DNA of 64,000 nucleotides, taken from NCBI GenBank assembly GCA_021825655.1, contig JAKAGU010000003.1, positions 12,014 through 76,013 on the forward strand, given 5' to 3'. Numbering within the stretch: the first letter of the stretch is position 1; the number at the start of each line of letters is the position of its first letter. Of the stretch, positions 3,192 through 50,118 are shown in pieces. Below the pieces are notes generated by a model that worked only from the letters and a program-made list of their open reading frames with translations, was not told where the DNA came from and searched no databases. This DNA is from a bacterium (GTDB taxonomy: Bacteria; Patescibacteriota; Doudnabacteria; UBA920). A program made the translations under genes and the position numbers.

Positions 3192-3217
3192 CTTAGCCTA
3201 TCAACAAAAAACAAAAT

Positions 3218-14851: not shown

Positions 14852-16450
14852 TTACTGCACCTTGTATTCAGTCACAACAATCCAAGTGCCCACATAGGGC
14901 CTAACCTCGGCAAAACCTTTTTCGTCCAGCTTGACCCAGTTCTTCGGCGTTTCGGGCTTGCTAGAACCGAATCCGTTTGTCCACAGCAGCCAGACCAGGT
15001 CGCCGCGCTTGACCTGGGTATTAAAGTCCGGCAGCAGGTCTTGGTTGGTCAAAATTGCCGTACCGGCAAAGTGCGGCAAGTCACTGACCTCACGGCTGCC
15101 GCCGGTGTAGAGCAGGGGCCTGACCGGCGTTTGGTTGTAATACTTAAAATTGAAAAATTCAAAGCTAGTACCCACATATAGCTTGTCTTCGGGCTGTACG
15201 TTGGCATCCAAAAATTTGGCGGCCGCAGCCATTCCCGGCTTGGTCTGCACGCCCAAATCCTGCCAGTACACGTACACCCCAATAAGATTAAAGGTTACGC
15301 AGGCACCAAAAAGGAGATAGGCGATTTTTTTATACCGTAGCTGGCCAAGCCATGCAGCCAGAGCGATATTCAAAAATGCAGCGGTGAAAATAAAGTATCT
15401 GACCAAATATACGGACGAACTGCTGCCTTTCAGCCGGGCCAAAATGTAAAACAGGAAAGAGCCGCCGAACGGCGCCAAAATTGCCAGAATTACCAGCCAT
15501 TTTTCAAAAACTTGGGTTTTTCTGAGGAACCGGTACAGAAAATATAGGGCAAACACAAAAGTTACCGCCAGTAAAATCTGGGTTTTAAATTTTGCCGGAT
15601 CATGGCCGATGCCGAATAGCAAAGTCCAAAGCGTAGAGGGAATACTCCACCGGTCCACGGGAGGTATCCAGTATCCGGCATCCACCTGCCGGTACTGGAA
15701 CAAAAAAGTCTTGAGCCAGGGCAAAAAAGAAAGGGCGATCAGCAAAAAAGACAGCAACAGCCAGCTATATTTTTTAATGCTGCCCTCATGGTGGAAAAAC
15801 AAATAAACCAACCCGTAAAAGCAGATTGCAGTAGCCGTAAACAGCAGGTAATAGTGGGTATAAATTAGAACGACCGTACTTAAAACAAAACCCAAATAAT
15901 TCCAAAGCATGCTCCGCTTCAAAGCAATTTCCTGGGGCAGGCGGGGCATGGCCAATTTACTGGTTCCGTACAGGTCTTTTTGGCGGTGGAGAGCCTTGGT
16001 CAAAAAGTAAGCCGAGAGTACGGCAAAAAATGCGCCCATGGTATACATCCTGGCCTCTGTAACATATTGGACGGAAAAAGGATTGACAGCTGCCAAAAGC
16101 CCGGCCCACAGGGCCAGCTTTTCGCTCTTAAAGGCTTCCCGAACGAACAGCCATACTGCCCACACCGTAAGGACGCCGAAGAGGACTGACATGCCGCGCA
16201 AAGAAAGCAGCGAATCCCCGAAGACATAATGCCACAGGCGCAAAAAAACGTAATACATAGGCGGATGCACATCCAGGCCGATGCGGTACATCATTTCCTT
16301 CCATGGGTAGCGGATGAGCAGGGCGGAAAAAGCCTCGTCGTGCCAAAGCGAAATGGCCGTTAAATTCCAAAATCTTAATGCGGCGGCCAGCGCCAGAATT
16401 CCGGCAATAGGCCAATACCTTTTTATGTGCATAGAAAACTTATTTTTCAC
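14852..16450 (-). CDS. GT-C membrane glycosyltransferase (ArnT/PMT-like, polyprenyl-phosphate-sugar dependent)
   Basis: Multi-TM protein with a first-loop WHDEAFSALLIRYPW (DE motif), 532 aa. Confidence 0.7.
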   Translation of the reverse strand: MKNKFSMHIKRYWPIAGILALAAALRFWNLTAISLWHDEAFSALLIRYPWKEMMYRIGLDVHPPMYYVFLRLWHYVFGDSLLSLRGMSVLFGVLTVWAVWLFVREAFKSEKLALWAGLLAAVNPFSVQYVTEARMYTMGAFFAVLSAYFLTKALHRQKDLYGTSKLAMPRLPQEIALKRSMLWNYLGFVLSTVVLIYTHYYLLFTATAICFYGLVYLFFHHEGSIKKYSWLLLSFLLIALSFLPWLKTFLFQYRQVDAGYWIPPVDRWSIPSTLWTLLFGIGHDPAKFKTQILLAVTFVFALYFLYRFLRKTQVFEKWLVILAILAPFGGSFLFYILARLKGSSSSVYLVRYFIFTAAFLNIALAAWLGQLRYKKIAYLLFGACVTFNLIGVYVYWQDLGVQTKPGMAAAAKFLDANVQPEDKLYVGTSFEFFNFKYYNQTPVRPLLYTGGSREVSDLPHFAGTAILTNQDLLPDFNTQVKRGDLVWLLWTNGFGSSKPETPKNWVKLDEKGFAEVRPYVGTWIVVTEYKVQ

Positions 16451-16455
16451 TTTAA

Positions 16456-18273
16456 TTATTTAACTTCGTATACGGCCATGGCTGCCTGGCCGAACTGGTT
16501 GCGTACCTCCAGAACAAGTTTGGTTTCCGGATGGTATGCTTTAAATTTTTTAATGTCAAAAATCGAACTCTGGGTAAACACAATCTGGTCGCCGGCTTTC
16601 AGGCCTTTGAGCTCCCAGGAATTTTCAGGATCCACCTGCATATAAGGCACGCTGCATGGGCTGTCAAAGTTACCCTTAGGGTCGCTGGTAATATAATCCG
16701 TGGTCTGTACAGAAAATTTATCCAGTACCAAATAAGTGGAATCTTTTTTGCAGCGCTCCACCAGGTATTTACCCACGGGGCTCAGATCGGAACGGAAGGC
16801 ATAAAAATTTTCCGGGCTGTTTGCGGCATATACAAAATAAGCAAAATAGGCTTGCAAAACCAGAGCGGCAAAAAACAAGGCCACAACCGCCTTAAGCAGC
16901 CTGCTGTTAAACTGATAAAAGCGCTGCTGGCCGGAAACCGGCTTGTTCCAATCCCAGACCGAGCCTGATCCCAATTTTTTTTGCCATAATTTTTCCCTGA
17001 AACTCATAGCGCCTTCAGCAAACCACATCAGGCCCAACGCGGTTAAGATGAACACCGGGGGGATAACGCCAATACCCCTCAAGCCGTGCGGTATGCCTTC
17101 TGCCGTACTGACAACAGGTAGGAGTAAGCCAAAAAACCAGCCAATAAGCAAATAGTATGTCCAGTAACGGCTTCTTTTGGCCGGAGCAAAGAAATACGCT
17201 ATGGCAAAAAACAAAGCTGCCAGCAAAGCCACGGCAAAAAACGGGCTGATGAGGGGGGAAAGGAAGGGGTAGCCGGAAACATTCTGCCGCCAATTCAAGT
17301 CGCCCTGGAAGAAAAAGCCCAGCATCTGGGTTTTAAAAACCTCGCCCATCACGGAACCGACCACGGAAAGGGGAGGCTTGCTGGTCAACTGCACGCCGTT
17401 AACCGTATACAACTCCTGGTTAAAGATGCTCACCTGGCCGGCCCGGCCCAGAAAAGAGCCCGGGTGCTGGTAAAAATACTTGCCAATGGGGTAGAAAAAT
17501 ATCACGAAAGCCACCAGAAATGAAACAGCAGGCCAAAAATATGTTTTTACTTCAGCCTTAAGGATTTTTTGTTTCAGCGCACCCAAAAGCGGCCACAGCA
17601 GCACCATAAACAAAATCGGCGCCATAATCCTGAAAGCGATGTAAGTATAAAAACCTAAAGCAAAACTAGCTCCGGTCAAAAAGCTATACAACAATTTTTT
17701 CTTGTTGATGGCTGCGGTATAGGTACAAAGCAAAAAATAAAAGGTCAAAGAAGCAAACAGGGGGATAAGGATTGCGCGGAAAGCGGTCCGGGAAAGCACA
17801 ATATGCCAGGAATTTACAGCCATCAGGAAAGTGGCCAGCAGGGCAATGTTCACGGCCCGGCGCTTGCCGGATTCGTCTTCCGGATCCAAGGTAAAACTCA
17901 AAAGTTTTTTGGTCACCAAGAAACACATAAGCACGGACAAAAGACCCACCAGCGCCGACACCAAATGGTGTTGCCAAGCGCCCTTGCCAAACAGTTCAAC
18001 GCCGCCCCAAAGCATATAGAAGAAAAGCGCCTCGCGACCATTACCGCGCTCGTAAAAAGGCTGAAGCACGCCTTTTTGCATTAAGTTAACATCCAAACCA
18101 TTGGCGGCTTCATCGGGAAACAAGCCGCCGGGCATACCCGGCTGCAGGTTCTCTACCTTAAAGTCCTTAATTGAGCACTGGCTGCCGCAATCCCAATGAA
18201 AGAGCAGGTAAAACCTAAAAAAAGCAGCCAGGATTAAAATTATAGCCAGCAGATATTTTTGGTTTCGGGTCAT
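16456..18273 (-). CDS. GT-C membrane glycosyltransferase (ArnT/PMT-like), paralogue of the gene downstream
   Basis: LFPDEAANGLDVNLM (DE motif) and many TM segments. Only 5 nt separate it from the next gene. Confidence 0.7.
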   Translation of the reverse strand: MTRNQKYLLAIILILAAFFRFYLLFHWDCGSQCSIKDFKVENLQPGMPGGLFPDEAANGLDVNLMQKGVLQPFYERGNGREALFFYMLWGGVELFGKGAWQHHLVSALVGLLSVLMCFLVTKKLLSFTLDPEDESGKRRAVNIALLATFLMAVNSWHIVLSRTAFRAILIPLFASLTFYFLLCTYTAAINKKKLLYSFLTGASFALGFYTYIAFRIMAPILFMVLLWPLLGALKQKILKAEVKTYFWPAVSFLVAFVIFFYPIGKYFYQHPGSFLGRAGQVSIFNQELYTVNGVQLTSKPPLSVVGSVMGEVFKTQMLGFFFQGDLNWRQNVSGYPFLSPLISPFFAVALLAALFFAIAYFFAPAKRSRYWTYYLLIGWFFGLLLPVVSTAEGIPHGLRGIGVIPPVFILTALGLMWFAEGAMSFREKLWQKKLGSGSVWDWNKPVSGQQRFYQFNSRLLKAVVALFFAALVLQAYFAYFVYAANSPENFYAFRSDLSPVGKYLVERCKKDSTYLVLDKFSVQTTDYITSDPKGNFDSPCSVPYMQVDPENSWELKGLKAGDQIVFTQSSIFDIKKFKAYHPETKLVLEVRNQFGQAAMAVYEVK

Positions 18274-18284
18274 AGTTTTTGTGT

Positions 18285-18313
18285 TTGCTTTATGGCAGCA
18301 ATTTCAGTATAAT
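18285..18313 (+). promoter_or_regulatory. sigma70-like promoter directly abutting the start codon at 18320 (possible leaderless transcript)
   Basis: TTGCTT, 17 nt spacer, TATAAT. The ATG lies 7 nt after the -10 hexamer. Confidence 0.4.
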
Positions 18314-18319
18314 TTATGC

Positions 18320-18667
18320 ATGAAATTGCTTGCCAAAGTTGAAGAAAATAATTATTTTTTGTTTCTTTGGGCCTTGTGCCTGATTTTTAATATTATAACA
18401 TTTTTATTCATTTACTACAAAATCCTGCCTTCCGGCAACACCTTTGCCTTAAAATACAACGTGATTACCGGGGTAGAATGGTATGGCAAGGGCTACAACC
18501 TTTACCAGATTCCGCTGGTCGGTTTGGCCATCCTGGGTTTGAATTATCTGCTTAGCCGCTTGCTCAGACATCGGGCGGACTTTCTGGCAGCCATGGCTAT
18601 TTTCGTCACTCTGGTCGTACAGCTGCTGCTATTGGCCGCAGCCTTGTTTTTAAAAACCGTTAACTAA
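18320..18667 (+). CDS. small membrane protein, hypothetical
   Basis: Starts MKLLAKVEEN; hydrophobic. Its stop overlaps the GT2 start (TAATG). Confidence 0.35.
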   Translation: MKLLAKVEENNYFLFLWALCLIFNIITFLFIYYKILPSGNTFALKYNVITGVEWYGKGYNLYQIPLVGLAILGLNYLLSRLLRHRADFLAAMAIFVTLVVQLLLLAAALFLKTVN

Positions 18668-20334
18668 TGTTCAGAAAACGCACTCTTACTGAAAGGTTTT
18701 GGGAAATCCAGCCAGGGCTCCACTTCTGGACCGTGTTTATTTTGGCGGTTACCCTGTCCTATTTGCAGCCGGTTTGGGCTGCGCTTTTCATTGTATGTTT
18801 TGACCTGTACTGGGTACTGAAGGCTTTGAACGTGGCCAGCCACCTAATGTCCAGTTATTTGAAATTTAAATTTTTTGTCACCATTGACTGGCTGGACTGG
18901 ACCGAACGCCTTCAGGACTTGCCGGGCTTTATCGGGTTTCTCAAAGAACGTCGGACGAGTCCGGTCAGCCAGCGCGAAAAAAAATACTTGGAATGGGAAA
19001 TTACCCGCCTGAACCAGCTGGCCGAAAAAGGCAGGACTGCCTTGGATTACAAAAAATATTACCAGCTCGTGCTCATTCCTTTTGTGGACGAAAGCTTTGA
19101 AGTTTTGGACTCCACGCTGCACGCCATAACGGCCTCCAATTACCCCAAGGATAAAATGCTCCTGCTTTTGGCCAGCGAGGAACGGGCGGGCCAGGAAGCC
19201 AGGGCTGTTGCCAGCCGCATTAAGGAAAAATACCAGGGGGCGTTTTATAAGTTTTTTGTCACCGCTCACCCGGACGGCCTGGCGGGGGAGATAAAAGGCA
19301 AGAGCGCCAACGCCTCTTACGCCGTGCAGGCAATCCTGCCCGACCTGGCGGCTGCGGGCATTGGCGTAGAACAGGTTTTGGTTTCGAATTTTGATTCCGA
19401 CACCATTGTGCATCCCCAGTATTTTTCGCGCGTGGTCTACGAGTTCCTAACCGCGGATAAGCCTTACCAGAGCAGCTACCAGCCGATTGCGGTATACAAC
19501 AACAACATTTGGGACAGCCCCGCGCTCATCCGGGTAATTAGCGTTTCCAATTCTTTCTGGCAGTTCACCGAGAGCAGCCGGCCAGACCGCCTGAGGACTT
19601 TTTCTTCGCACAGCATGCCGCTAAAAACTTTGGTGGAAGTCGGCTTCTGGAAAAAAGACATTGTCAATGAAGACGGTTACATTTACTGGCAATGCTATAT
19701 GCATTTTAAGGGCGATTACCATGTCGTGCCGCTTTTCGTACCCATTAGCCTGGACACCTGCCTAGCGGCCTCAACCTGGGAAACCATCAAAAACCAGTAC
19801 AAGCAAAAACGGCGCTGGGCCTACAACGTGGAATATTACCCGCATTTGGTGCCCAAACTTTTAACCCTGGACGCACCCCTCTGGGACCGGCTCTATAAAC
19901 TTTTCCAGTACGTGGAAGGCAATTTCAACTGGGCTACGGCCAGCATTATGATTTCCATGCTCGGCTGGCTGCCGCTGTTCGTCGGCGGCGACGATTTTTA
20001 TACCACAGTGGTGGCGTTCAACCTGCCCTTCATCACCAAGGTGCTGATGAACACCGCGCTCTTCTTTTTGATTTTCAGCGTATACATAAATATGATTCTT
20101 CTGCCGCCCCGACCGGCTAAATACGGCGCCACACGCAGCGTCATGATGTACCTGCAGTGGTTTTTAGTGCCTATCGCTTCGGTAATTTTTGGCAGCTTGC
20201 CGGCCGTGGAAGCCCAGACCCGCCTCCTGTTCGGAAAATACCTGGAATTCTGGGTCACGCCCAAAGCCCGCCTGGGCGAAAACACCGGCCTGTCCATGAA
20301 AGAAATGCAAGCCGTAAACACCCCCCGCAAATAA
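18667..20334 (+). CDS. processive family-2 glycosyltransferase (cellulose/chitin/PNAG-synthase-like), membrane embedded
   Basis: N- and C-terminal TM segments; DSD (NFDSDTIV), NEDG (TED-like) and a QxxRW-type motif KQKRRW. Confidence 0.55.
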   Translation: MFRKRTLTERFWEIQPGLHFWTVFILAVTLSYLQPVWAALFIVCFDLYWVLKALNVASHLMSSYLKFKFFVTIDWLDWTERLQDLPGFIGFLKERRTSPVSQREKKYLEWEITRLNQLAEKGRTALDYKKYYQLVLIPFVDESFEVLDSTLHAITASNYPKDKMLLLLASEERAGQEARAVASRIKEKYQGAFYKFFVTAHPDGLAGEIKGKSANASYAVQAILPDLAAAGIGVEQVLVSNFDSDTIVHPQYFSRVVYEFLTADKPYQSSYQPIAVYNNNIWDSPALIRVISVSNSFWQFTESSRPDRLRTFSSHSMPLKTLVEVGFWKKDIVNEDGYIYWQCYMHFKGDYHVVPLFVPISLDTCLAASTWETIKNQYKQKRRWAYNVEYYPHLVPKLLTLDAPLWDRLYKLFQYVEGNFNWATASIMISMLGWLPLFVGGDDFYTTVVAFNLPFITKVLMNTALFFLIFSVYINMILLPPRPAKYGATRSVMMYLQWFLVPIASVIFGSLPAVEAQTRLLFGKYLEFWVTPKARLGENTGLSMKEMQAVNTPRK

Positions 20335-20335
20335 C

Positions 20336-21430
20336 ATGCCTTATTTTTTTTATTTTTTAGCCGCCACTCTGCTGTCCGCCCTGTTTACGCCTGTAGTCAA
20401 AAAGGCGGCCTTCCGTTTCCAAATTCTGGACATACCCAACAGCCCGAGAAAAATCCAAAAGCACCCCACGCCGCTTTTGGGCGGGGTGTCGGTCTTCTTG
20501 TCTTTTGTGCTTGTTACGGCTGGCTACCTGCTGTTGTCCCGGCCCGATTTTAATATTGTACCTTTCAAATTCTTCCTGGGCATTTTCAGCGGCGGACTTG
20601 TGCTGCTGGTAGGCGGGATTTTGGACGATAAATACAACCTGCCGCCCAGGGCTTTGTGGCTGTTCCCGGCCCTAGCCTCGCTGTGCGTTGTCGCCTCCGG
20701 CATTGGCGTGGGTATCACCACGCTTTCCAACCCTTTCGGCGGCACGCTCAACATTGGCCAGGTAATTTTTGGCATCAAGCTTTCTGCACTGATTATGTGG
20801 TTATGGATGATGGGCATGATATTCACCACCAAATTTTTGGACGGGCTGGACGGGCTCTGCTCCGGCATTGCGCTCATCGGCGGCCTGACCTTGTTCGCGC
20901 TGTCTTTGACCGAACACATCAACCAGCCCATCACGGCCAGCCTGGCCGTCATCTTTACGGGGGCAATTGCCGGATTTTTGCTCTACAACTTCCACCCGGC
21001 CAGTATTTTTCTGGGCGAATCAGGCAGCACGTTTTTGGGCTTTGGCTTGGGGGTTTTGGCCATCATCCTGGGCGGAAAAATCGCTACCGCGCTGCTGATT
21101 ATGGGCATCCCCATTTTAGACGTGGCTTGGGCTATTATGCGGCGGCTGTGGTACGGGCAAAGCCCATTTAAAGCGGACAAAAGCCACTTGCACCACCGCC
21201 TCCTGGATATTGGCCTGTCCCAGCGCCAAGCCGTGCTGGTGCTGTACGGCATTTCCGCAATTTTCGGGTTTACAGCCGTATTTCTGCAATCCATGGGCAA
21301 ACTGATCGCCCTGGGCGTGCTGTTCTGCGTCATGGTGGTCTTGGCCCTGGCTTTGGTTATGATTTACAAGCGCCAGCACCCCCATATTCCCGACCTGTTT
21401 GATAAGGTTGACGAAAAAGCCCAAAAATGA
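20336..21430 (+). CDS. polyprenyl-phosphate N-acetylhexosamine-1-phosphate transferase (GT4, WecA/MraY family)
   Basis: PRKIQKHPTPLLGGVSVF, ILDDKYNLP, FLDGLDGLCSG, NFHPASIFLGESGSTFLGFGLG, HLHHRLLDIGLSQRQ (WecA-type HIHHRL). Confidence 0.75.
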   Translation: MPYFFYFLAATLLSALFTPVVKKAAFRFQILDIPNSPRKIQKHPTPLLGGVSVFLSFVLVTAGYLLLSRPDFNIVPFKFFLGIFSGGLVLLVGGILDDKYNLPPRALWLFPALASLCVVASGIGVGITTLSNPFGGTLNIGQVIFGIKLSALIMWLWMMGMIFTTKFLDGLDGLCSGIALIGGLTLFALSLTEHINQPITASLAVIFTGAIAGFLLYNFHPASIFLGESGSTFLGFGLGVLAIILGGKIATALLIMGIPILDVAWAIMRRLWYGQSPFKADKSHLHHRLLDIGLSQRQAVLVLYGISAIFGFTAVFLQSMGKLIALGVLFCVMVVLALALVMIYKRQHPHIPDLFDKVDEKAQK

Positions 21431-27303: not shown

Positions 27304-27876
27304 ATGGAACTCAATACGATTTTTTTCATCGGTCCCCAGGGCAGCGGCAAAGGCACCCAGGCCAAAATGCTCGCCTCCAAACTTGGCTTTTTTTACTGGG
27401 AAATGGGCGGCATCCTGAGGCAGGTGGCGCAAGAAGAGACCGAGCTGGGTAAAAAAATCAAAGGCTTGATTGACCAGGGCATTTTGCTTTCCGACGACCA
27501 GATTTACGAGGTCGTTAATTCCCGCTTTACCCAAATACCCAAAGACAAAGGCGTAATTTTTGACGGCATTCCCAGGCGTTTGGGCCAAGCCCAATTTTTG
27601 ATGGATTTTTTGAAAAAACAGGGCAGAAAAAATTTTGTGACGCTTTACATCAACCTGCCCAAGGAAGAAACTTTTAAAAGGCTGAAACTGCGGGCGGAAA
27701 AGGAAGGCCGCGCGGACGATACCCAGGAAGCAATCGAACTCAGGCTCAAGCAATACACTGAAGCCACCTTGCCGGTCCTGGACTATCTGAACCAGGAAAC
27801 CTCTTTTTTTGAAATTGATGGCACGCCAGCCATAGAAAAGGTCAGCGCCAAAATTAATGAAGCCCTGGGTATTTAA
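27304..27876 (+). CDS. adk: adenylate kinase (short form)
   Basis: P-loop IFFIGPQGSGKGTQAK, GILR, DGIPRRLGQAQFL, LID region GRADDTQEAIELRLKQY. Confidence 0.85.
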   Translation: MELNTIFFIGPQGSGKGTQAKMLASKLGFFYWEMGGILRQVAQEETELGKKIKGLIDQGILLSDDQIYEVVNSRFTQIPKDKGVIFDGIPRRLGQAQFLMDFLKKQGRKNFVTLYINLPKEETFKRLKLRAEKEGRADDTQEAIELRLKQYTEATLPVLDYLNQETSFFEIDGTPAIEKVSAKINEALGI

Positions 27877-28491
27877 ATGAAGCAGCCGCCTCTGAACATC
27901 ATACTGCTCGGCGATCCGGCCTCGGGCAAAGCAACGCACGGGGCTTTTATTGCGCAGAAGTACGGCATGTATGATTTGGATATGGGGCGGGAACTCAGGG
28001 CGATTGCCAAAAATCCGGGTCTGCGGAAAAAATATCGGCTGGACGAAACTTTGGAAAAAGGCAAGCTTACACCCACGAAAATTGTCAGGCAGATTCTGCG
28101 CGACCGCATTCACGCGGTGCCGAAAAACCAGGGCCTGCTTTTAAACGGCACGCCCAAAATGATTGGCGAGGCCAAGCTGGTGGCCAAATGGCTTAAGGAA
28201 GAAAACCGTGGCAATCCTTTATTTGTTTATATTTCCATCCCGCTGGCCGAAACCATCCGCCGCATGACCAGCCGCAAGGAATATTTTAAGGGCAAATTCA
28301 GCAAACGGCCGGATGATAACAACCAGGCCCTAAAAAACCGCATTGCCTACTACAAAAAAAATATCACCGAAGTCGTAAAGTTTTTTAAAACCCGATACCA
28401 GTTCAAAAAAATTTCCAGCCTGGGCACGATTGCCGGGGCCCGGAAAAAAATCCTAACTATGCTGGAGCACTATGAAAAAAGGGGCCGTTAA
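27877..28491 (+). CDS. second, divergent adenylate-kinase-family nucleoside monophosphate kinase
   Basis: IILLGDPASGKATHGAFIAQKY (altered P-loop), GKLTPTKIV, LNGTPKM, KRPDDNNQALKNRIAYY. Its start overlaps the adk stop (TAAATG). Confidence 0.6.
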   Translation: MKQPPLNIILLGDPASGKATHGAFIAQKYGMYDLDMGRELRAIAKNPGLRKKYRLDETLEKGKLTPTKIVRQILRDRIHAVPKNQGLLLNGTPKMIGEAKLVAKWLKEENRGNPLFVYISIPLAETIRRMTSRKEYFKGKFSKRPDDNNQALKNRIAYYKKNITEVVKFFKTRYQFKKISSLGTIAGARKKILTMLEHYEKRGR

Positions 28492-29233
28492 AACCCGGGA
28501 AGAAATTAGCCTGATTGCCGAGGGCGGCACAATCCTCCACGACATCCTCTACCGCACGGCGGCGCTTGCCAAGCCGGGCGTTTCCACCTGGGAACTGAAT
28601 GAATTTGCGGAAACCGAAATTGCCAAAGCCGGCGGCAGGCCGAGCTTTAAAGGCTACGGCGGCAAAAAAAACCCCTACCCAGCCGGCCTGTGCACCTCGG
28701 TCAACAGCGAAGTCGTGCACGGCATCCCCTCCAAAAAGACACTTTTAAAAGACGGGGACATTGTGGGCCTTGATATTGGCATGGAATACAAGGAGCTATT
28801 TACTGACACGGCCATCACCGTACCCATTGGCAAAGTTTCTGCACTGGCGGAAAAACTTTTGGAAGCCACTCAAAAATCTTTGAACGCGGCCATCAAGCAG
28901 GCCAAACCCGGCAACCGCATAGGCGATATCAGCTTTGCCATTCAATCCACTGCCGAGGCCGCGGGTTTTTCCGTAGTGCGCGATTTGGTCGGCCATGGCG
29001 TGGGTTACGATGTTCACGAAGACCCGTCCGTGCCGTGCTACGGGAAAAAGGGGACGGGGCAGGTTTTAAAAACCGGCATGGTGCTGGCTATTGAGCCCAT
29101 GCTCTGCGAGCACGAATATTTTGTAGATTTCGATAAGGACGGCTGGACTATCCGCACCAAAGACGGAGGACTTTCCGCCCATTTTGAACACACCATTGCC
29201 ATTACCGAATACGGCGCAAGAATTCTCACTTGA
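28472..29233 (+). CDS. map: methionine aminopeptidase type I
   Basis: VHGIPSKKTLLKDGDIVGLDIGMEY, GHGVGYDVHEDPSVP, IEPML. Confidence 0.9.
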   Translation: MKKGAVKTREEISLIAEGGTILHDILYRTAALAKPGVSTWELNEFAETEIAKAGGRPSFKGYGGKKNPYPAGLCTSVNSEVVHGIPSKKTLLKDGDIVGLDIGMEYKELFTDTAITVPIGKVSALAEKLLEATQKSLNAAIKQAKPGNRIGDISFAIQSTAEAAGFSVVRDLVGHGVGYDVHEDPSVPCYGKKGTGQVLKTGMVLAIEPMLCEHEYFVDFDKDGWTIRTKDGGLSAHFEHTIAITEYGARILT

Positions 29234-29293
29234 AAATCAAATCTTTTTAAAAGAATGCTTAAACTTAAGCATTCTTTTTTTATTATTTACGTC

Positions 29294-29322
29294 TTGACAA
29301 AATATCAATTTTATGCTTAAAT
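29294..29322 (+). promoter_or_regulatory. sigma70-like promoter upstream of the PEP-CTERM gene
   Basis: TTGACA, 17 nt spacer, TTAAAT. The GGAGG Shine-Dalgarno lies 7 nt before the TTG start. Confidence 0.45.
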
Positions 29323-29375
29323 AACAGCACCATTCGGAAGACCGGGTGGATTCCAAGTCCAAGGGAGGACTGTAA

Positions 29376-30023
29376 TTGCATAAACAATGTGTGTTGTTGT
29401 TAGTGGTACTGCTGGCGGCCAGCATGGCAGCGCAAGCGGGCACCATCACTTTCGGTTCCGATCTTACGGACGAGTACAACCTTCACAATCTCGTCTACGG
29501 GTCGAACCAGTTCATCATCCCGGATCCGGCGTGGGCACCGCAGCTGCCGCACGGCAGCTGGATCAGCTACGCCAATACGGGTGACGGCGCGGGCGCGATT
29601 TCGCCGCCCAACACGACCATCCCCGGACCGGCCACCGCAGTCTTTTTCGAAGTTCTGCCGGTCGGCACCTACCTGGCTTCCTTGAACATCTTCGCGGATG
29701 ACACCGCAGGGGTTTTCCTGGAAGACGCGAGCAATCCGTACGGTTTGCTGCTGAAAGCGCCGAACCCAGTACAAGACGGACACTGTGCAGCCGGGCAGAT
29801 TGGCTGCGAAGTGAACGAGAACTGGACAGGCAGCTTTGCGGTAGACCCCAGCGGTTCTTCCCGCTTGCGCATCGAAGCGTATCAGCGCGGGGGCGGGCCC
29901 TTCGGGGTCATGTACCAAGGCACGGCCTCGACCGTGCCGGAACCTGCCAGCTATCTGCTGCTCGGCAGCAGCCTCGTGATTCTCGGCGGCATCCGCAAGT
30001 GGCGGACGCGCAGCCAAAACTAA
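29376..30023 (+). CDS. secreted protein with N-terminal signal peptide and C-terminal PEP-CTERM sorting signal
   Basis: Signal peptide LLLVVLLAASMAAQA|GT. C-terminus VPEPASYLLLGSSLVILGGIRKWRTRSQN (VPEP + hydrophobic helix + basic tail). Coding GC is about 65-70% against a window average near 50%. Confidence 0.65.
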   Translation: MHKQCVLLLVVLLAASMAAQAGTITFGSDLTDEYNLHNLVYGSNQFIIPDPAWAPQLPHGSWISYANTGDGAGAISPPNTTIPGPATAVFFEVLPVGTYLASLNIFADDTAGVFLEDASNPYGLLLKAPNPVQDGHCAAGQIGCEVNENWTGSFAVDPSGSSRLRIEAYQRGGGPFGVMYQGTASTVPEPASYLLLGSSLVILGGIRKWRTRSQN

Positions 30024-30041
30024 CAACACAGCAGTTCAAGA

Positions 30042-30078
30042 CAAAAGCGGGCACCCCAGGAGGAGTGCCCGCTTTTCC
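30042..30078. terminator. bidirectional intrinsic terminator shared by the PEP-CTERM gene and thrS
   Basis: agcgggcac cccaggagga gtgcccgct, with T-runs on both strands. Confidence 0.6.
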
Positions 30079-30086
30079 AATATATA

Positions 30087-31886
30087 TTATTTTTTTTCTA
30101 TAACTTGCTTTTGCAATTTTTCTGCAAAAGCTTCCAGGCTCATTTGCCCCAAGTCTTCGCCTTCGCGGGTACGCACGCTAAGCATTCCGGCATCCGCTTC
30201 CTTTTGGCCTAAAATAATCTGATAGGGAATTTTTTGCATGGTGGCTTCGCGGATTTTTTTTCCAATCGACTCGTCTCGGGCATCCACTTCCATGCGCAAG
30301 CTTGCGTTAACAGCCAGGAGTCTGTCTTTTATTTCTCCGGCAAAAGCTGCCTGGTTTTCCGAAATCGGCAAAATACTGACTTGGACAGGCGAAAGCCATA
30401 ACGGAAAGGCTCCTGCATAGTGTTCAATCAGGATGGCCAAAAACCTTTCAAAAGAACCCAGCAAAGCGCGGTGGATGACAATCGGCGTTTTACGGCTGCT
30501 GTCGGGCGCCACGTATTCCAAACCGAAACGCTGGGGCATCTGGAAATCCAGCTGGATAGTCGCCAGCTGCCATTTCCTGCCCAAGGCATCCCGAATGCGC
30601 ATGTCGATTTTTGGCCCGTAAAATGCGCCGTCTCCGGCGTTAATCTCGTACTGCCAGCCCGCTTTTTTCAAAGCTTCCGCCAGCGCCGCTTCCGCCGTAT
30701 CCCATTCCTCTTTGGTGCCTAAAGATTTTTCAGGTTTGGTGGAAAGGGCCACGTCTTCCACCCGCATGTCAAAGACCGCATAGATTTTCTGAATGCGCGA
30801 CAATAACTCCGCTACCTCGTCCGCTACCTGTTCCGGGGCCAGGAAAATATGGCAGTCATCCTGGGCAAAAGCCCTTACCCGAGTCAGGCCGGACAGGGTG
30901 CCGGAAAGTTCGTTTCGGTAAAGTGTGGACATTTCCGCGTACCGCAAGGGCAAGTCCCGGTAAGAATACAAGCCCTGCTTAAACAGCAGCATATGGCCCG
31001 GACAGTTCATGGGCTTTAGGCCAAAAGTGCGGCCTTCGCTCTCCAGGGTAAACATATCGTCCTTGTAGTGTTCCCAGTGACCGGAAGTTTTGAACAGCTC
31101 CGAATCGAAAAGCTGCGGCAAGCGCACTTCGCTGTAACCCGGGCCATAAGAAACGGAGCGGACAAATTTTTCCAGTTCGTTTCTGACAATGCTGCCTTTG
31201 GGTAAATAGAAGGGAATCCCTGGGGCGTACTCATGGAACATAAACAAGTCAAGCTTGGGCCCCAAACTTCTGTGGTCGCGTTTTTCGGCTTCTTCCACCA
31301 TTTTTAAGTAGGCTTCCAGCTCTTCTTTGCTTTCAAAAGCCAACCCGTATATGCGCTGCATTTGCGGATTTTTCTGGTCGCCGCGCCAATAGGCGCCGGA
31401 GAACCTGTCAAGCTTAAACGCATCGGCCTTAATCTCCGAAGTGCTCTCCACGTGCCCGCCCCGGCATAAATCCACAAACTTGCCGGTTTTATACAAAGAT
31501 ACGCTTTCCACTTTTTTCTCCGCAGCCCCAGGCTTGCCGGCTTGGCCTTCTATTTGGTCCATTTCCGTGGTGCCGAATTTTTCAATATCCTCAATCAGCT
31601 CCACTTTGAAAGTCTGTTTTGCATTCCTAAAAAAATCCTTGGCCTCGCCAGTGGACATTTCCTGGCGCTCAAACGGCAGTTTCTGCCTGACCAGTTCGCG
31701 CATGCGCTTTTCAATCTTTTTCAAATCTTCCGGGGTAATGGGGCGGGGGAGAAGAAAGTCATAGTAAAAACCGTTCTCAATGACCGGACCAACGCCCAAG
31801 TTTGCCTGCGGGAACATTTCCACGACAGCGGAGGCCAGAATGTGGGCCAAAGAATGGCGGATGTGGTGCAGTTTTTCGTTTTCCAT
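30087..31886 (-). CDS. thrS: threonine--tRNA ligase
   Basis: HIRHSLAHILA, class II core, FERFLAILIEHYAGAFPLWLSPVQV, anticodon-binding C-terminus. Confidence 0.9.
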   Translation of the reverse strand: MENEKLHHIRHSLAHILASAVVEMFPQANLGVGPVIENGFYYDFLLPRPITPEDLKKIEKRMRELVRQKLPFERQEMSTGEAKDFFRNAKQTFKVELIEDIEKFGTTEMDQIEGQAGKPGAAEKKVESVSLYKTGKFVDLCRGGHVESTSEIKADAFKLDRFSGAYWRGDQKNPQMQRIYGLAFESKEELEAYLKMVEEAEKRDHRSLGPKLDLFMFHEYAPGIPFYLPKGSIVRNELEKFVRSVSYGPGYSEVRLPQLFDSELFKTSGHWEHYKDDMFTLESEGRTFGLKPMNCPGHMLLFKQGLYSYRDLPLRYAEMSTLYRNELSGTLSGLTRVRAFAQDDCHIFLAPEQVADEVAELLSRIQKIYAVFDMRVEDVALSTKPEKSLGTKEEWDTAEAALAEALKKAGWQYEINAGDGAFYGPKIDMRIRDALGRKWQLATIQLDFQMPQRFGLEYVAPDSSRKTPIVIHRALLGSFERFLAILIEHYAGAFPLWLSPVQVSILPISENQAAFAGEIKDRLLAVNASLRMEVDARDESIGKKIREATMQKIPYQIILGQKEADAGMLSVRTREGEDLGQMSLEAFAEKLQKQVIEKK

Positions 31887-31890
31887 ATGT

Positions 31891-32607
31891 TTATAAGTTT
31901 AATTGTTGCTTTAAATTTTCCAGTTGTATCCTGCGCATGGGCATGCCGTATTCCCGTTCCAATTTTAAGGCATTTTCTTCTGCGCGGGTAAAATATCGTT
32001 CCGACTCTGCTCTGTTATTTAAAATTGTGCTGGCTTCGGCCAAACGGGCCTGAATGCCGGAAAGGATGATTAATTTATGGAACGGCCTGAGCGCGCCGTC
32101 AGCTTCGGCTAAAGACAAAGCTTCAGACAGTTTTTTAAAAGCCTCTGGGTTTTGGCGCCATTTAAGTTCGGAGATAGCATAATGACTTAAAAATTCGGCG
32201 TATGCCCCGGAAACGGTTTTAGGCAGCGCTTCCAGCGCCTGTGCATACAGTGCTGTGGATTCCTGATATTTGCCTTCCATATAAAAAGTGTCAGCGTACC
32301 TGAGCAGCGCCGCGGCTTTGGGCGCGCCGGAGACCTGGAACTTGTCCGCCAGGGCCAGTGCGGAAAAAGCTTCGCTGCGCATCATAACCAGATAAATTTC
32401 CTGTCCCGTTTTTTGATACAGATGCTTAAAAATGTGCAGCTTGTGATTTAAGGCCTCCACCACCAAATCGGAACGCTTGGCTGCGGCCGCATCCACGCTG
32501 GCGCGGTCAATGACAGCCAGGGCCTCGGTCGTTCTGCCCTGCTCGGAAAGATTTTCAAAATCTTCAAACAAGCGACGGATTTCTTTTTCTTTTTCCGATT
32601 CGGCCAT
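31891..32607 (-). CDS. helical-repeat (TPR-like) protein, hypothetical
   Basis: 238 aa, all-alpha repeat-like composition, no catalytic motif recognised. Confidence 0.3.
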   Translation of the reverse strand: MAESEKEKEIRRLFEDFENLSEQGRTTEALAVIDRASVDAAAAKRSDLVVEALNHKLHIFKHLYQKTGQEIYLVMMRSEAFSALALADKFQVSGAPKAAALLRYADTFYMEGKYQESTALYAQALEALPKTVSGAYAEFLSHYAISELKWRQNPEAFKKLSEALSLAEADGALRPFHKLIILSGIQARLAEASTILNNRAESERYFTRAEENALKLEREYGMPMRRIQLENLKQQLNL

Positions 32608-39128: not shown

Positions 39129-39608
39129 ATGAATCAGAAAAGAGAAAAACTCTGGTGGTTTTACTGGCTGCCAAACATGCTGAAGTACATAGTCTGGCCC
39201 AGCATTGAGTTCGTCTGGCACGGGTTCGTCTATGTGCGCTATGCTGTTTATTTCATCACCGGCTTCCTGAGCGCTCCGGCTATCCGGCTCGTTTGGAACT
39301 GGGCATGCCCCAGCAGCCCCATCGGCGCACCACAAGCTATGGCCGCGGTATTCGCCGCCTTGGGGCTGGCCATCTTCCTGACCAAAACCCAGCCGGGCAA
39401 TGACCTGCTGGGCGCGCTTGCGGCCCTGGCCATCATCGCTGGCTGTTTCTGCTGGCTGCTGCTCGCAGCCCTGCCCGCACTCGTGCTTTACGCCTACGGC
39501 CGCCTGCGCCAAGCAGGCAGCCCCGGCAAAACCGCATACGCATTCTATCTCGGTCCGATTGAATGGGCTGACAGGAGGTTTTTTCTCTCACACCGGACGG
39601 GGAACTGA
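39129..39608 (+). CDS. small polytopic membrane protein, hypothetical, compositionally GC-rich
   Basis: 159 aa, about 4 TM segments, Trp/Ala/Leu-rich. GC is about 65-70% in its central part. Followed by the hairpin acggggaact gagc agttccccgt. Confidence 0.4.
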   Translation: MNQKREKLWWFYWLPNMLKYIVWPSIEFVWHGFVYVRYAVYFITGFLSAPAIRLVWNWACPSSPIGAPQAMAAVFAALGLAIFLTKTQPGNDLLGALAALAIIAGCFCWLLLAALPALVLYAYGRLRQAGSPGKTAYAFYLGPIEWADRRFFLSHRTGN

Positions 39609-48414: not shown

Positions 48415-48536
48415 TTTTCTCTCTGGGATGAATTATTTACCCCAGAAGTATACCAGAAAAATCCTCTTTTTTGTAGAGTTTTAAGCACTGGATTTTTCCG
48501 GGCAATTATGTTAAAATAAAAAACGCTACCAGCCAC

Positions 48537-48612
48537 GCCGGCTTAGCTCATCTGGTAGAGCAACGGTTTTGTAAACCGTAGGTGGTCGGTTCAAGTCCGA
48601 CAGCCGGCTCCA
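48537..48612 (+). tRNA. tRNA-Thr (anticodon TGT), CCA encoded
   Basis: Acceptor gccggct/agccggc, anticodon stem acggt/accgt with loop ttTGTaa, T arm gtcgg-ttcaagt-ccgac. Confidence 0.85.
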
Positions 48613-48704
48613 TAGCCCACTTTTTATTGGATCATAAAAAGTGCAAAGATTTTCCGACGCCCGGTTAATCTTTAACCAATAAATTTTTAACCTTAAATAA
48701 TCCC

Positions 48705-48860
48705 ATGTCCCAAGACCACTTGATTAACCTGGAGTGCACGGTTTGCCACAACCTCAACTACCAGACCAAGAAGAACAAGAAGAACACCCAGAAGCGTTTG
48801 GAATTGCAGAAGTACTGCAAATTCTGCAAAAAGAAAACCCTGCACAAGGAAACCAAATAG
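48705..48860 (+). CDS. rpmG: 50S ribosomal protein L33 (missed by the ORF track, 51 aa)
   Basis: [51 protein letters not shown]: two CxxC pairs and the KNKKN...RLEL...K.C..C motif of bL33. Confidence 0.8.
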
Positions 48861-48867
48861 TCTTCCT

Positions 48868-48891
48868 GTCCGGCCTTTAGGGGCCGGTTTT
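48868..48891 (+). terminator. hairpin plus T-run after rpmG
   Basis: ccggcc tttagg ggccgg tttt. Confidence 0.45.
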
Positions 48892-48965
48892 GGGGGCGTC
48901 GTATAATGGTAGTACAGCGGTCTCCAAAACCGCTTGCGTGGGTTCGATTCCTACCGCCCCTGCCA
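48892..48965 (+). tRNA. tRNA-Trp (anticodon CCA), CCA encoded
   Basis: Acceptor gggggcg/cgcccct (one G-U pair), anticodon stem gcggt/accgc with loop ctCCAaa, T arm gtggg-ttcgatt-cctac. Confidence 0.8.
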
Positions 48966-49061
48966 AAGAAACTTCTCTTTATTTTGAGGAGTTTTTTTGT
49001 AGGGCAATTTACTATTGAACAAAAAGAACTTATACTTGAAGAGAGGTGAACGATAAAATTT

Positions 49062-49460
49062 ATGAAGCAAGAACAAAAAGATAGCTGGCTAAGAAGAATG
49101 GGAAAGAAATATCAAATTCCCGCACAAACCCTAAACAAAATGCTAAAAAGAGACAGGCTTTGTGTGTATTGTCATAAAATAATGGTTTTGCCTAAAAAAG
49201 GAGCAAAACAACGAGACTGGATTACAATTGAACACATGGCTGATAGAGCATCTGGGAATAACGATAAAACGATTGCTCTCTGTTGTGGGAGGTGCAATTC
49301 AAGTCGCAGGATGAGTTTTGAAAAATGGTTTAAGACTCCGTACTGTATCAATAGGGGAATAAATAAAAAAAGTGTTGCCGAACCAGTTAAAGCCTACCTC
49401 AAAATGATTGCGCGTCTGAATCCGAAAGATCTCAAAAAATACATCATCAAAAACTACTAA
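49062..49460 (+). CDS. HNH endonuclease (free-standing), in an AT-rich islet next to tRNA-Trp
   Basis: CVYCHK ... IEHM ... NND ... CCGRCNSS (CxxC-H-N-CxxC HNH signature). Gene GC is about 33-37%. Confidence 0.6.
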   Translation: MKQEQKDSWLRRMGKKYQIPAQTLNKMLKRDRLCVYCHKIMVLPKKGAKQRDWITIEHMADRASGNNDKTIALCCGRCNSSRRMSFEKWFKTPYCINRGINKKSVAEPVKAYLKMIARLNPKDLKKYIIKNY

Positions 49461-49472
49461 ATTCTTTCAACG

Positions 49473-49733
49473 ATGGACGACAAAAAAAGTATAAAGTGGA
49501 CATTCGCCAAAACTTATGCCGAAACAGCTCCGCATGAGTACATCCTCGAGGAGAACTACCCTGACTTTTTTGCTGAAATGAAAGAAAAAATTGACAAGAA
49601 AGGCAAGGGGGAGCCTTTTACCCTGTTTGGTCGGACTACGATTTACCGTTATTTTTATACAGATACACATAGATACTGGGTAATTGAAGATGTGTTAAAC
49701 AGGGATAACAGATATAACCTAAAAAAGGTTTAA
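49473..49733 (+). CDS. hypothetical small protein downstream of the HNH gene
   Basis: 86 aa, no recognisable motif. Confidence 0.3.
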   Translation: MDDKKSIKWTFAKTYAETAPHEYILEENYPDFFAEMKEKIDKKGKGEPFTLFGRTTIYRYFYTDTHRYWVIEDVLNRDNRYNLKKV

Positions 49734-49817
49734 AAATCAAAGCCAACCATATTACCAAATTACCAATTTTAGCGATTTCGGTTCTAACATCGTTCCATAG
49801 GGACTACCACGACTTTT

Positions 49818-49845
49818 TAACCACCCGCAAGGGTGGTTTTTTATT
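49818..49845 (+). terminator. intrinsic terminator closing the HNH islet
   Basis: ccaccc gcaa gggtgg plus T6. Confidence 0.6.
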
Positions 49846-49855
49846 TCTGAATGTA

Positions 49856-50116
49856 GTGCTATACTCAAACCGTATGAAAATCCAAGTCTTGGGCTCCGGC
49901 TGTCCCACCTGTAAAAAACTTTTTGAAATTACCAAACAGGCGGCTAAAGAATTAAATATTCCGGAAGAGGTTGAATACATTACCGACATTCAGCAAATTT
50001 TGGATATGGGCCTAATGTCCAGCCCTGTTCTGGCAGTTAACGGCAAACCGGCCTTAGTCGGTTTCATACCGAAGGTGGAAGAAATAAAAAAAGCTATTCA
50101 AAAAAACATTTCCTAA
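49856..50116 (+). CDS. small thioredoxin-fold redox-active disulfide protein (CPTC motif; Thioredoxin_3/TM0983-like)
   Basis: MKIQVLGSGCPTCKKL ... VLAVNGK, 86 aa. Confidence 0.6.
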   Translation: MLYSNRMKIQVLGSGCPTCKKLFEITKQAAKELNIPEEVEYITDIQQILDMGLMSSPVLAVNGKPALVGFIPKVEEIKKAIQKNIS

Positions 50117-50118
50117 CC

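Follow-up and report, generated by a model that had tools for sequence, protein, structure and literature searches.

A probable modular and recombining cassette for a secreted PEP-CTERM-tailed protein between map and thrS of a Patescibacteria bacterium

The closest described relative of the locus reported here is the PEP-CTERM/exosortase (EpsH, XrtA) protein-sorting system, reportedly set out by Haft et al. in 2006 and 2012. Within a 64,000-nucleotide stretch of contig JAKAGU010000003.1 (the window), an open reading frame (ORF) at 29376..30023 on the + strand, starting with TTG, encodes a 215-aa protein that resembles the substrates of that system: an N-terminal signal peptide is combined with a PEP motif, a membrane helix and a basic cluster at the extreme C-terminus. 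Unlike in that system, the host is a member of the candidate phyla radiation (CPR) and not an exopolysaccharide (EPS)-producing Gram-negative bacterium, no exosortase is encoded in the 64 kb, and the tail lies within a recombining 3' module common to unrelated ectodomains. Genomes with typical PEP-CTERM systems carry a dozen or more such proteins, whereas the window has one and related CPR DNA (676 kb) has one or two at each locus. The best explanation of the whole, to which we give a probability of about 0.6, is a modular, horizontally derived and recombining cassette for a secreted surface protein.

Other known systems share some of these features. Floc-associated PEP-CTERM proteins such as Zoogloea PepA (NF033554), reportedly studied by Gao et al. 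in 2018, are of the same small secreted type, with a role of PepA in the exopolysaccharide matrix being thought likely; the match to NF033554 is limited to the tail, the ectodomain shows no homology (22 bits, cut-off 80) and no EPS/exosortase locus is found in the window. The LPXTG/sortase substrates likewise combine a signal peptide with a C-terminal motif, a hydrophobic helix and a basic tail, and are displayed on a cell without an outer membrane, but the motif here is VPEP. The mosaic alleles, and the conserved 5' and 3' modules around a variable, surface-exposed part, recall Neisseria pilE/pilS and Borrelia vlsE, while the swapping of a whole allele at a fixed slot between near-identical genomes recalls the replacement of capsule and O-antigen alleles. 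Unlike in pilE/pilS and vlsE, no silent donor copies were seen in the window, the variation was observed between strains, and the middle can be a wholly unrelated domain, one of the two having apparently been imported from another phylum. By its motif and by one of two curated thresholds the tail is a PEP-CTERM signal, and orthologues are already so labelled by NCBI. The modular cassette, the replacement and mosaic make-up of its alleles, the second family of ectodomains and the leader hairpins are new beyond an earlier annotation of the same DNA made without database searches (the sequence-only reading). The cassette and its flanks are composed as follows:

28472..29233: map, the left flank, convergent with thrS
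29234..30086 (+): whole cassette, an insertion between the stop codons of the convergent map and thrS
29249..29288 (+): map terminator hairpin, AAAAGAATGCTTAA-AC-TTAAGCATTCTTTT plus a T-run, with a 13-bp stem (-13.9 kcal/mol, z -5.1)
29294..29322 (+): predicted promoter block, with TTGACA at 29294-29299, a 17-nt spacer and TTAAAT at 29317-29322
29330..29349 (+): leader hairpin 1, CCAUUCGG-AAGA-CCGGGUGG, 8 bp
29356..29371 (+): leader hairpin 2, AGUCC...GGACU, which pairs with the 3' part of the Shine-Dalgarno sequence
29376..29438 (+): TTG start and Sec-type signal peptide, residues 1-21, with cleavage after AQA
29439..29933 (+): ectodomain, residues 22-186, a beta-sandwich and the part of the cassette that varies and recombines
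29934..30023 (+): PEP-CTERM tail and stop codon, residues 187-215, with VPEP, a 16-residue hydrophobic helix and RKWRTRSQN
30043..30078 (both strands): bidirectional intrinsic terminator, common to the cassette (+) and thrS (-)
30087..31886 (-): thrS, the right flank

Cassette and flanks show similar divergence in most genome pairs. The loci L008 (GCA_040960095.1) and L009 (GCA_023487095.1), however, are 98.8% identical in map (dS 0.006) and 98.7% in thrS. Their cassettes reach ~76% identity in the best local alignment, or ~70% across the entire block, and differ by indels, a dN of 0.215 and a dS of 0.96; the break spans the start codon to the terminator. The flanks of a third locus, L076, are 91-93% identical to both. 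Its cassette is 80-89% identical to that of L008 in the 5' half. Identity to L009 is 52-70% at the 5' end, rises to 94-96% in the centre and falls to 50-68% in the tail; the tail of L076 is nearest to that of the window's allele (87%). Two tail types, A (...GG(I/F/V)RK(W/F)R.RS.N) and B (...ARLPNWLRRRRNR), are found within one genomic background.

The modular build is most apparent at L162, where a gene of the window's family (family 1) and a gene of a second family stand in tandem. Their ectodomains are unrelated, but their 5' modules (promoter, leader, Shine-Dalgarno sequence, TTG and first ~13 codons) are ~90% identical, the 5' homology stopping at ~codon 13, and their 3' modules are 100% identical from the V-P-E-P codons exactly through the terminator. 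Similarly, the same slot on L090, a Doudnabacteria contig, holds an unrelated secreted protein of 199 aa that passes TIGR02595 with 19.3 bits. Family 2 has three members (P0082-P0084) in 5.8 billion proteins, one of them named Candidatus Doudnabacteria, and its genes are located at:

L090, 6482..7081
L162, 902..1513
L161, 1839..2456

The L161 gene is found at another locus, near His_Phos_1, SmpB and ArgRS, in DNA of 50% GC. Because the L162 modules are shared and the ectodomains are unrelated, the signal-peptide and sorting-tail ends behave as homology arms for a swap of the middle. At the level of sequence, these comparisons establish the cassette as a recombination hot spot within the CPR lineage, with whole-allele replacement, mosaics and an unrelated ectodomain on the same 5' and 3' modules. 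The window itself holds the 5' module, the 3' module and the ectodomain in a single copy each, and showed no mobile-element or integron signs (flanking repeats, integrase or transposase). The only strong inverted repeats at the locus are the two terminators. An 11-mer common to the signal-peptide region and the terminator is unique to the window's allele and was set aside as a chance match.

The homology search proposed in the sequence-only reading, run against 5.8 billion proteins, returned 67 homologues of ~210 aa with full-length similarity. Family 1 is characterised by the motifs FGSDL, W-SYANTG, FADDTA and AYQRGGGPFG, by the invariant residues W53, W62, D108, D109, C137, C144 and Q170, and in most members by a PEP-CTERM tail; members outside the CPR clade match at E values of 1e-57 to 1e-61, with 51-56% identity over 87-100% of the length. 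Counting one genome per species, 1/66 family loci belongs to Patescibacteria and 65/66 are non-CPR, mostly from Bryobacteraceae/Bryobacterales and other Acidobacteriota, with some from Alpha- and Gammaproteobacteria. In the non-CPR hosts the GC content of the gene tracks that of the host (0.41-0.67). The closest non-CPR genes come from genomes of 65-66% GC and have a GC of 0.61-0.64 and a GC at third codon positions (GC3) of 0.72-0.74, equal to the CPR copies. In the neighbour-joining tree the nine closest sequences, P0001-P0009, form one clade nested inside the family (bootstrap 471/500), and every member of this clade with readable flanks is CPR. Among the CPR alleles, amino-acid identity goes as low as 62% and dS is saturated, while the slot is unchanged.

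The slot was also sampled independently of the cassette, by anchoring on Map in 80 metagenome loci. The adk-map arrangement facing a convergent thrS was found in 18/80, the cassette gene in 0/18, and at empty sites (L083, L093 and L095) map and thrS abut. To judge from these loci, the map-thrS intergenic slot is a general gain-and-loss hot spot between convergent genes. Other cargo in relatives consists of a DUF559 endonuclease-like gene, an RRM RNA-binding protein, or an MgsA/RarA-like ATPase with a membrane protein (L080 6652..6969 (-), L085 3099..3617 (-), L094 1035..1337 (-) and L097 912..2968), and in L076 an EamA transporter gene has been added before thrS at 906..1802 (-). With 9 CPR cassette clusters versus more than 100 clusters of threonyl-tRNA synthetase (ThrRS) at 65-75% identity to the ThrRS of the window, the cassette is patchily distributed. 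The tree and the host range support horizontal acquisition from Acidobacteriota-like bacteria, with one entry into this CPR lineage; because the nearest outsider is ~56% identical, the transfer was not recent. The earlier suggestion of a horizontally acquired cargo is therefore retained on account of the mainly Bryobacterales/Acidobacteriota family, the nested CPR clade and the empty sites, and modified in that this was not a recent single event. The nearest outgroup to the CPR clade, P0011 (L160 140..781), lies in ~59% GC DNA on a 1.2-kb contig without the CPR leader; its tail (...GVRKVWTRTRN) is like CPR type A, which suggests that this tail type came with the family-1 gene. Two metagenome-assembled genomes labelled 'Arcobacter sp.', L013 (DYJN01000012.1) and L014 (CAYWJB010000022.1), carry the family on contigs of ~66% GC, and since Arcobacter genomes are of low GC these labels look wrong.

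The N-terminus of the window's protein reads MHKQCVLLLVVLLAASMAAQA followed by GT, with a charged n-region (K3), a hydrophobic core of ~12 residues (6-16) and an AXA motif. The signal peptide was called from these sequence features alone, and in all homologues conservation sets in right after the AXA motif. The C-terminus consists of VPEP, ASYLLLGSSLVILGGI and RKWRTRSQN and reaches the stop codon. Its score with NCBIfam TIGR02595 (18.5 bits) passes the curated cut-off of 16, a precomputed PF07589 match is present in many family members, including the orthologue P0003 (weak there), and the Acidobacteriota relatives carry PEP-CTERM annotation. Residues 22-186 have no Pfam domain match even at E <= 10. 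Both ends agree with the sequence-only reading, which had placed the cleavage site between AQA and GT and described VPEP, 16 hydrophobic residues and RKWRTRSQN, and its TTG start also holds. The Shine-Dalgarno sequence and TTG are kept in the window, both L162 cassettes, L007, L008, L009 and L076, and their conservation makes this the supported start. Gene callers begin P0004 and P0008 at an ATG inside the -10 region (TTTTATGCTTAAAT; L078 225-316 and L079 95-186), giving false N-terminal extensions, and the NCBI model of the 95% orthologue (MCL5008982.1, P0068) begins at an internal Met, by which the signal peptide is lost. An antisense ORF at 29400..30029 (209 aa) has no support and is a by-product of the high GC.

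A six-frame regex scan of the window for further PEP-CTERM tails returned only that of the 29376..30023 ORF; a second regex match, at 3192..3440, was rejected as a non-genic frame without a hydrophobic helix. The related CPR DNA contains 10 such tails, all in cassettes of this kind. VPEP is invariant in the 12 CPR cassette proteins (9 family-1 alleles and 3 family-2 proteins), and is thus constant across tail types A and B and two ectodomain families despite saturated synonymous sites. In a Bryobacteraceae subclade the PEP motif has decayed (HTPEEAT), with the helix kept and a longer cytoplasmic tail. The dN/dS ratio of the gene is 0.14-0.23, measured against orthologues with saturated dS, compared with 0.02-0.13 for neighbouring genes; together with the 67 homologues and the confident fold it shows that the gene is real and under purifying selection. 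As this is clearly purifying, the source of the variability is recombination rather than relaxed or positive selection on point mutations.

The promoter block, CTTGACAAAAT-N-ATTTTnTGCTTAAAT, is conserved in 10/10 cassettes examined and was found nowhere else in 1.79 Mb of DNA than upstream of these cassettes. With a TG at 29314-29315, one base ahead of the -10 box, it has the features of a sigma-70-type promoter with an extended -10. It was not flagged by a simple consensus promoter scan because the rule of that scan demands an A at position 2 of the -10 box. Leader hairpin 1 has covariation support, with 92.5% of cells paired, double-sided changes in 6/8 pairs and 0/500 shuffles as good; slid registers fall to 14-50% paired, and the hairpin is present in the minimum free energy (MFE) fold of 5/5 leaders tested. 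Leader hairpin 2 was also predicted in 5/5 MFE folds. GTCC and GGAGGAC are invariant in 10 cassettes, hence there is no covariation for this hairpin, which covers the Shine-Dalgarno sequence and may have a regulatory role. An Rfam scan of the window returned no family at gathering score for the leader, and four tRNAs only. The Shine-Dalgarno sequence, GGAGG, is found at 29364-29368, 7 nt ahead of the TTG. At the other end, the hairpin at 30043-30076 folds with -23.9 kcal/mol on the + strand (z -5.9) and -29.5 kcal/mol on the - strand (z -6.6) and, having a U-run on each side, can work both ways; it is kept after every cassette, with compensatory stem changes. The TTGACA/17 nt/TTAAAT promoter, the strong Shine-Dalgarno sequence and the bidirectional terminator named in the sequence-only reading are thereby all confirmed as elements of the DNA. 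The map terminator is conserved in cassette-bearing loci and absent at empty sites, and would shield the cassette promoter from map read-through.

The GC content of the gene is 0.611 (GC1 0.593, GC2 0.491 and GC3 0.750), the highest of the 51 ORFs of the window (the next being 0.590) and 3.8 standard deviations above the mean of the other 50 (0.503, sd 0.028). The 65-70% given in the sequence-only reading was therefore overstated, while the excess over the neighbours is real. Much of this is explained by the composition of the protein (Gly 11%, Ala 11%, Pro 7%, Lys 1.4% and Glu 3.3%), as had been anticipated: its amino acids, encoded with the codon usage of the window, predict 58.2% GC, or ~70% of the excess. 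After correction for composition, GC3 is 0.752 observed versus 0.664 expected (z 2.9; 12/5000 simulations reach it). This residual of +0.088 is the largest in the window, yet it amounts to ~1.9 gene-to-gene standard deviations and other genes reach up to +0.07, so by the refuting condition set in the sequence-only reading (codon usage like that of core genes after correction for composition) the window on its own is a borderline case. In the orthologue L007 the host genes have a GC3 of ~0.47 (range ~0.42-0.51) and the cassette 0.77 (z 7.9), which makes composition alone insufficient; the corrected excess in L008 and L009 has z of 2.5-2.7. The family-2 cassette in L090 also shows a GC3 of 0.66 observed versus 0.45 expected (z 6.5), and because this family is unrelated, the surplus of codons ending in G or C is a property of the cassettes and not solely inherited from a donor. 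Translational selection is an unlikely source, as the ribosomal protein and EF-Ts genes of the window have a GC3 of 0.60-0.67. Exchange between lineages that differ in GC would fit the residual excess, as would GC-biased gene conversion at a recombination hot spot.

Two further compositional features were observed in the window. The ORF with the second-highest GC, at 39129..39608 (+; GC 0.59, GC3 0.72), encodes a small membrane protein of 159 aa with no family match; having neither PEP tail nor 5' module it was ruled out as a sister cassette, and no ORF was called at the matching position in L007. An AT-rich stretch (GC 0.37-0.42) is found at 48426..51087, with tRNA-Thr(tgt) at 48537-48612, tRNA-Trp at 48892-48965 and an ArsP_1 permease gene (50119..51087, GC 0.44) that has the most negative corrected GC3 residual of the window (-0.119, z -4.8). 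This stretch beside tRNA genes may be of foreign origin, with a bias towards AT in contrast to the GC bias of the cassette.

The exact 853-bp block 29234-30086, with both flanks and the context of map and the gene facing thrS, is identical in six assemblies from different pipelines and samples (NCBI GCA_027341245.1, the Logan assembly of SRR13240876 and four ENA samples), and the identical protein is found on 13 contigs in all. The window corresponds to ~67.4-131.4 kb of the 181-kb contig DAIENE010000001.1, and orthologues fill the same slot in the CPR loci L007-L010 and L076. NCBI labels the 95%-identical orthologue 'PEP-CTERM sorting domain-containing protein [Patescibacteria group bacterium]', and the named close relatives of the adjacent ThrRS are all 'Patescibacteria group' or 'Candidatus Doudnabacteria'. 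These relationships place the host among the Patescibacteria (CPR), near Doudnabacteria. The rest of the window holds housekeeping genes, including those for aminoacyl-tRNA synthetases, gyrB, greA, dnaB, dnaE, ftsW, RF1, S2 and EF-Ts. Directly upstream of map are two tandem adenylate-kinase-family genes (190 and 204 aa, 27304..28491 (+)), a pair also kept in L009 and most Map-anchored relatives. Directly downstream of thrS, at 31891..32607 (-), is a gene for a 238-aa helical protein with no family match, which is present in the cassette-bearing L001, L008 and L076, not in L007, and in 0/80 Map-anchored loci.

An AlphaFold2 (AF2) model of the window's protein (predicted local distance difference test, pLDDT, 93.3; predicted template modelling score, pTM, 0.85) consists of a signal helix at residues 2-18, a beta-sandwich at 22-186 and a single C-terminal helix at 190-214. 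The ectodomain of ~165 aa carries the two invariant cysteines C137 and C144, for which one disulfide loop is proposed, and shows the beta-sandwich jelly-roll topology of the galactose-binding-domain-like fold and of carbohydrate-binding modules (CBMs). Sequence identity is 3-21% to galactose-binding-domain-like CBMs (the GH2 N-terminal sugar-binding domain and CBM61/32/22/4/35) and to the cleaved-adhesin domains of gingipains. Unlike CBMs, the ectodomain is free-standing and not joined to an enzyme, and no Pfam CBM model matches it. The AF2 model of the family-2 ectodomain, built on three sequences, gave no usable fold (pLDDT 46). On the strength of the fold, the export signal, the C-terminal anchoring and the strain-level variability, the protein is most likely a variable, lectin-like, glycan-binding surface adhesin. 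It would leave the cell via Sec and be held at the cell surface by its C-terminal helix, where its ligand could be a glycan or exopolysaccharide from a partner cell. Swapping of alleles might then alter the binding specificity, or evade phage and host recognition. Elsewhere in the window, an envelope-glycosylation cluster at 14852..21430 comprises two PMT_2-type genes (14852..16450 and 16456..18273 (-)), a GT2 (18667..20334) and a GT4/MraY-like gene (20336..21430), and may be relevant to the glycosylation of surface proteins. Also a candidate for secretion or surface exposure is the 513-aa product of 3218..4759 (+), which has a single hydrophobic segment at its N-terminus and a TSP3 (thrombospondin type 3) repeat of the bacterial kind.

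Several points weigh against this interpretation or parts of it. The tail scores 18.0 bits with Pfam PF07589, below the gathering threshold of 20.7, and the label of a textbook PEP-CTERM signal in the sequence-only reading thus holds for the motif and the TIGR02595 cut-off and not for PF07589. The 64-kb window encodes neither exosortase nor archaeosortase; Gram-negatives are the bacteria in which PEP-CTERM systems are known, and CPR cells are generally described without an outer membrane. The EPS-producing Gram-negative context suggested earlier does not apply, as the host is a CPR bacterium instead. With an overall dN/dS below 1, diversifying selection is not directly indicated. Evidence of allele replacement comes from a single species-level group (L008/L009/L076), and L001 and L010 are 93-94% identical throughout, in cassette and flanks alike. 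The metagenome contig L162 is short (1.55 kb) and breaks off within the repeated 3' module, and the upstream partner of its tandem could be a mis-join. VPEP stands at a recombination breakpoint, and its conservation could be due in part to the 3' module being exchanged in one piece. Finally, the fold match is generic, and sugar binding is suggested at the level of the fold only.

Four other accounts of the cassette were weighed. A fragment of a GC-rich organism joined into a CPR contig during assembly or binning would explain the jump in GC from ~0.50 to 0.61 within ~100 nt at both borders, but the exact block with both flanks in six assemblies of different pipelines and samples, the orthologues in the same slot of L007-L010 and L076, and the AT-rich, conserved, cassette-specific promoter and leader refute the assembly chimera considered in the sequence-only reading, and we give it practically no credence. 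The native Ala/Gly/Pro-rich gene, also considered there, is correct for the ~70% of the GC excess that stems from composition. As a full account (an ordinary gene, GC-rich through its Gly/Ala/Pro-rich and Lys/Glu-poor protein, without horizontal transfer) it can point as well to the modest size of the GC3 residual (+0.088, ~1.9 gene-to-gene standard deviations, with others reaching +0.07) and to the other GC-rich ORF, 39129..39608, being merely a small membrane protein; it is nevertheless very unlikely given the corrected GC3 excesses in L007 (z 7.9) and L090 (z 6.5), a family that is overwhelmingly non-CPR with the CPR clade nested inside, syntenic relatives without the gene or with empty sites, and 9 CPR cassette clusters versus more than 100 of ThrRS at comparable divergence. 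The GC and GC3 match to the closest Acidobacteriota homologues, together with the lack of an exosortase within the window, would also suit a gene received recently, in a single transfer from a GC-rich donor among the Acidobacteriota, that has yet to drift to the base composition of its host and is possibly a non-functional orphan PEP-CTERM cargo without its sorting enzyme. This is improbable, since the nearest non-CPR relative is ~56% identical, the CPR alleles in the same slot reach down to 62% identity with saturated dS, the dN/dS is 0.14-0.23, the promoter, leader and terminator are CPR-specific, and family 2, with no known GC-rich donor, has the same GC3 excess. Diversity-generating retroelements (DGRs) are common in CPR genomes and usually target surface proteins, so that the hypervariability might be ascribed to a DGR or another targeted mutator in place of recombination; divergence with indels over the entire coding sequence, including signal peptide and tail, mosaic blocks of 94-96% beside 50-70% identity, and a window with no reverse transcriptase and no template repeat make this highly implausible.

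Whether the tail is processed is less certain. For the exosortase scan, every ORF of at least 150 aa was covered by a Pfam scan or a precomputed Pfam label, and polytopic membrane proteins also by NCBIfam; the statement in the sequence-only reading that the window holds no exosortase was borne out. The membrane proteins considered were instead PMT_2 glycosyltransferases, GT4, a Na/H exchanger, FtsW, ArsP, an ABC exporter and TerC/DUF475, and three small unannotated membrane proteins were too short or had too few helices. A search of one literature library returned no link of exosortase or PEP-CTERM sorting to Patescibacteria/CPR, with incidental or reference-list mentions alone. The same cassette with the same evolution might carry a tail that is a plain membrane anchor in a single-membrane cell, with no exosortase and no cleavage, PEP being a relic kept by 3'-module exchange. 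These two negative results, the single AF2 helix at residues 190-214, the HTPEEAT Bryobacteraceae subclade, by which anchor-only versions of the family exist, and the movement of the 3' module as a unit all fit such an anchor, which we regard as possible at clearly less than even odds. It accounts less well for VPEP being invariant in the 12 CPR cassette proteins, through both tail types, two ectodomain families and saturated synonymous sites, and for the recruitment of two unrelated PEP-CTERM proteins to this lineage. The HTPEEAT subclade also speaks for processing in the CPR copies, in that it shows the motif to be capable of decay. Cleavage and attachment of the protein at VPEP by an exosortase-like enzyme is somewhat likelier, if still just short of an even chance.

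A PEP-CTERM signal conserved in a lineage thought to have neither outer membrane nor exosortase would mean either an unrecognised sorting enzyme or the reuse of the signal as a plain anchor. A GC-rich island can evidently last long without drifting to the composition of its host, and the finding that GC anomalies can stem mostly from amino-acid composition is relevant to genome scanning. Swapping through homology arms formed by the signal peptide and the sorting tail would be a simple route to capture foreign surface proteins. In its widest form, which as a whole we consider unlikely, the proposal is that Doudnabacteria-like CPR bacteria possess a dedicated hypervariable surface-display slot, in which a fixed leader and PEP-CTERM anchor frame swapped lectin-like ectodomains captured even across phyla (possibly from Acidobacteriota hosts), which are sorted by an unrecognised exosortase-like enzyme and decide the host to which these episymbionts attach. 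Host recognition and attachment are a central open question for CPR bacteria, and very few candidate attachment proteins are known. The cassette offers a candidate host-attachment factor that is small, confidently modelled, lectin-like and variable among strains that are otherwise identical; its closest relatives belong to Bryobacterales of soil and sediment, which could be the partners.

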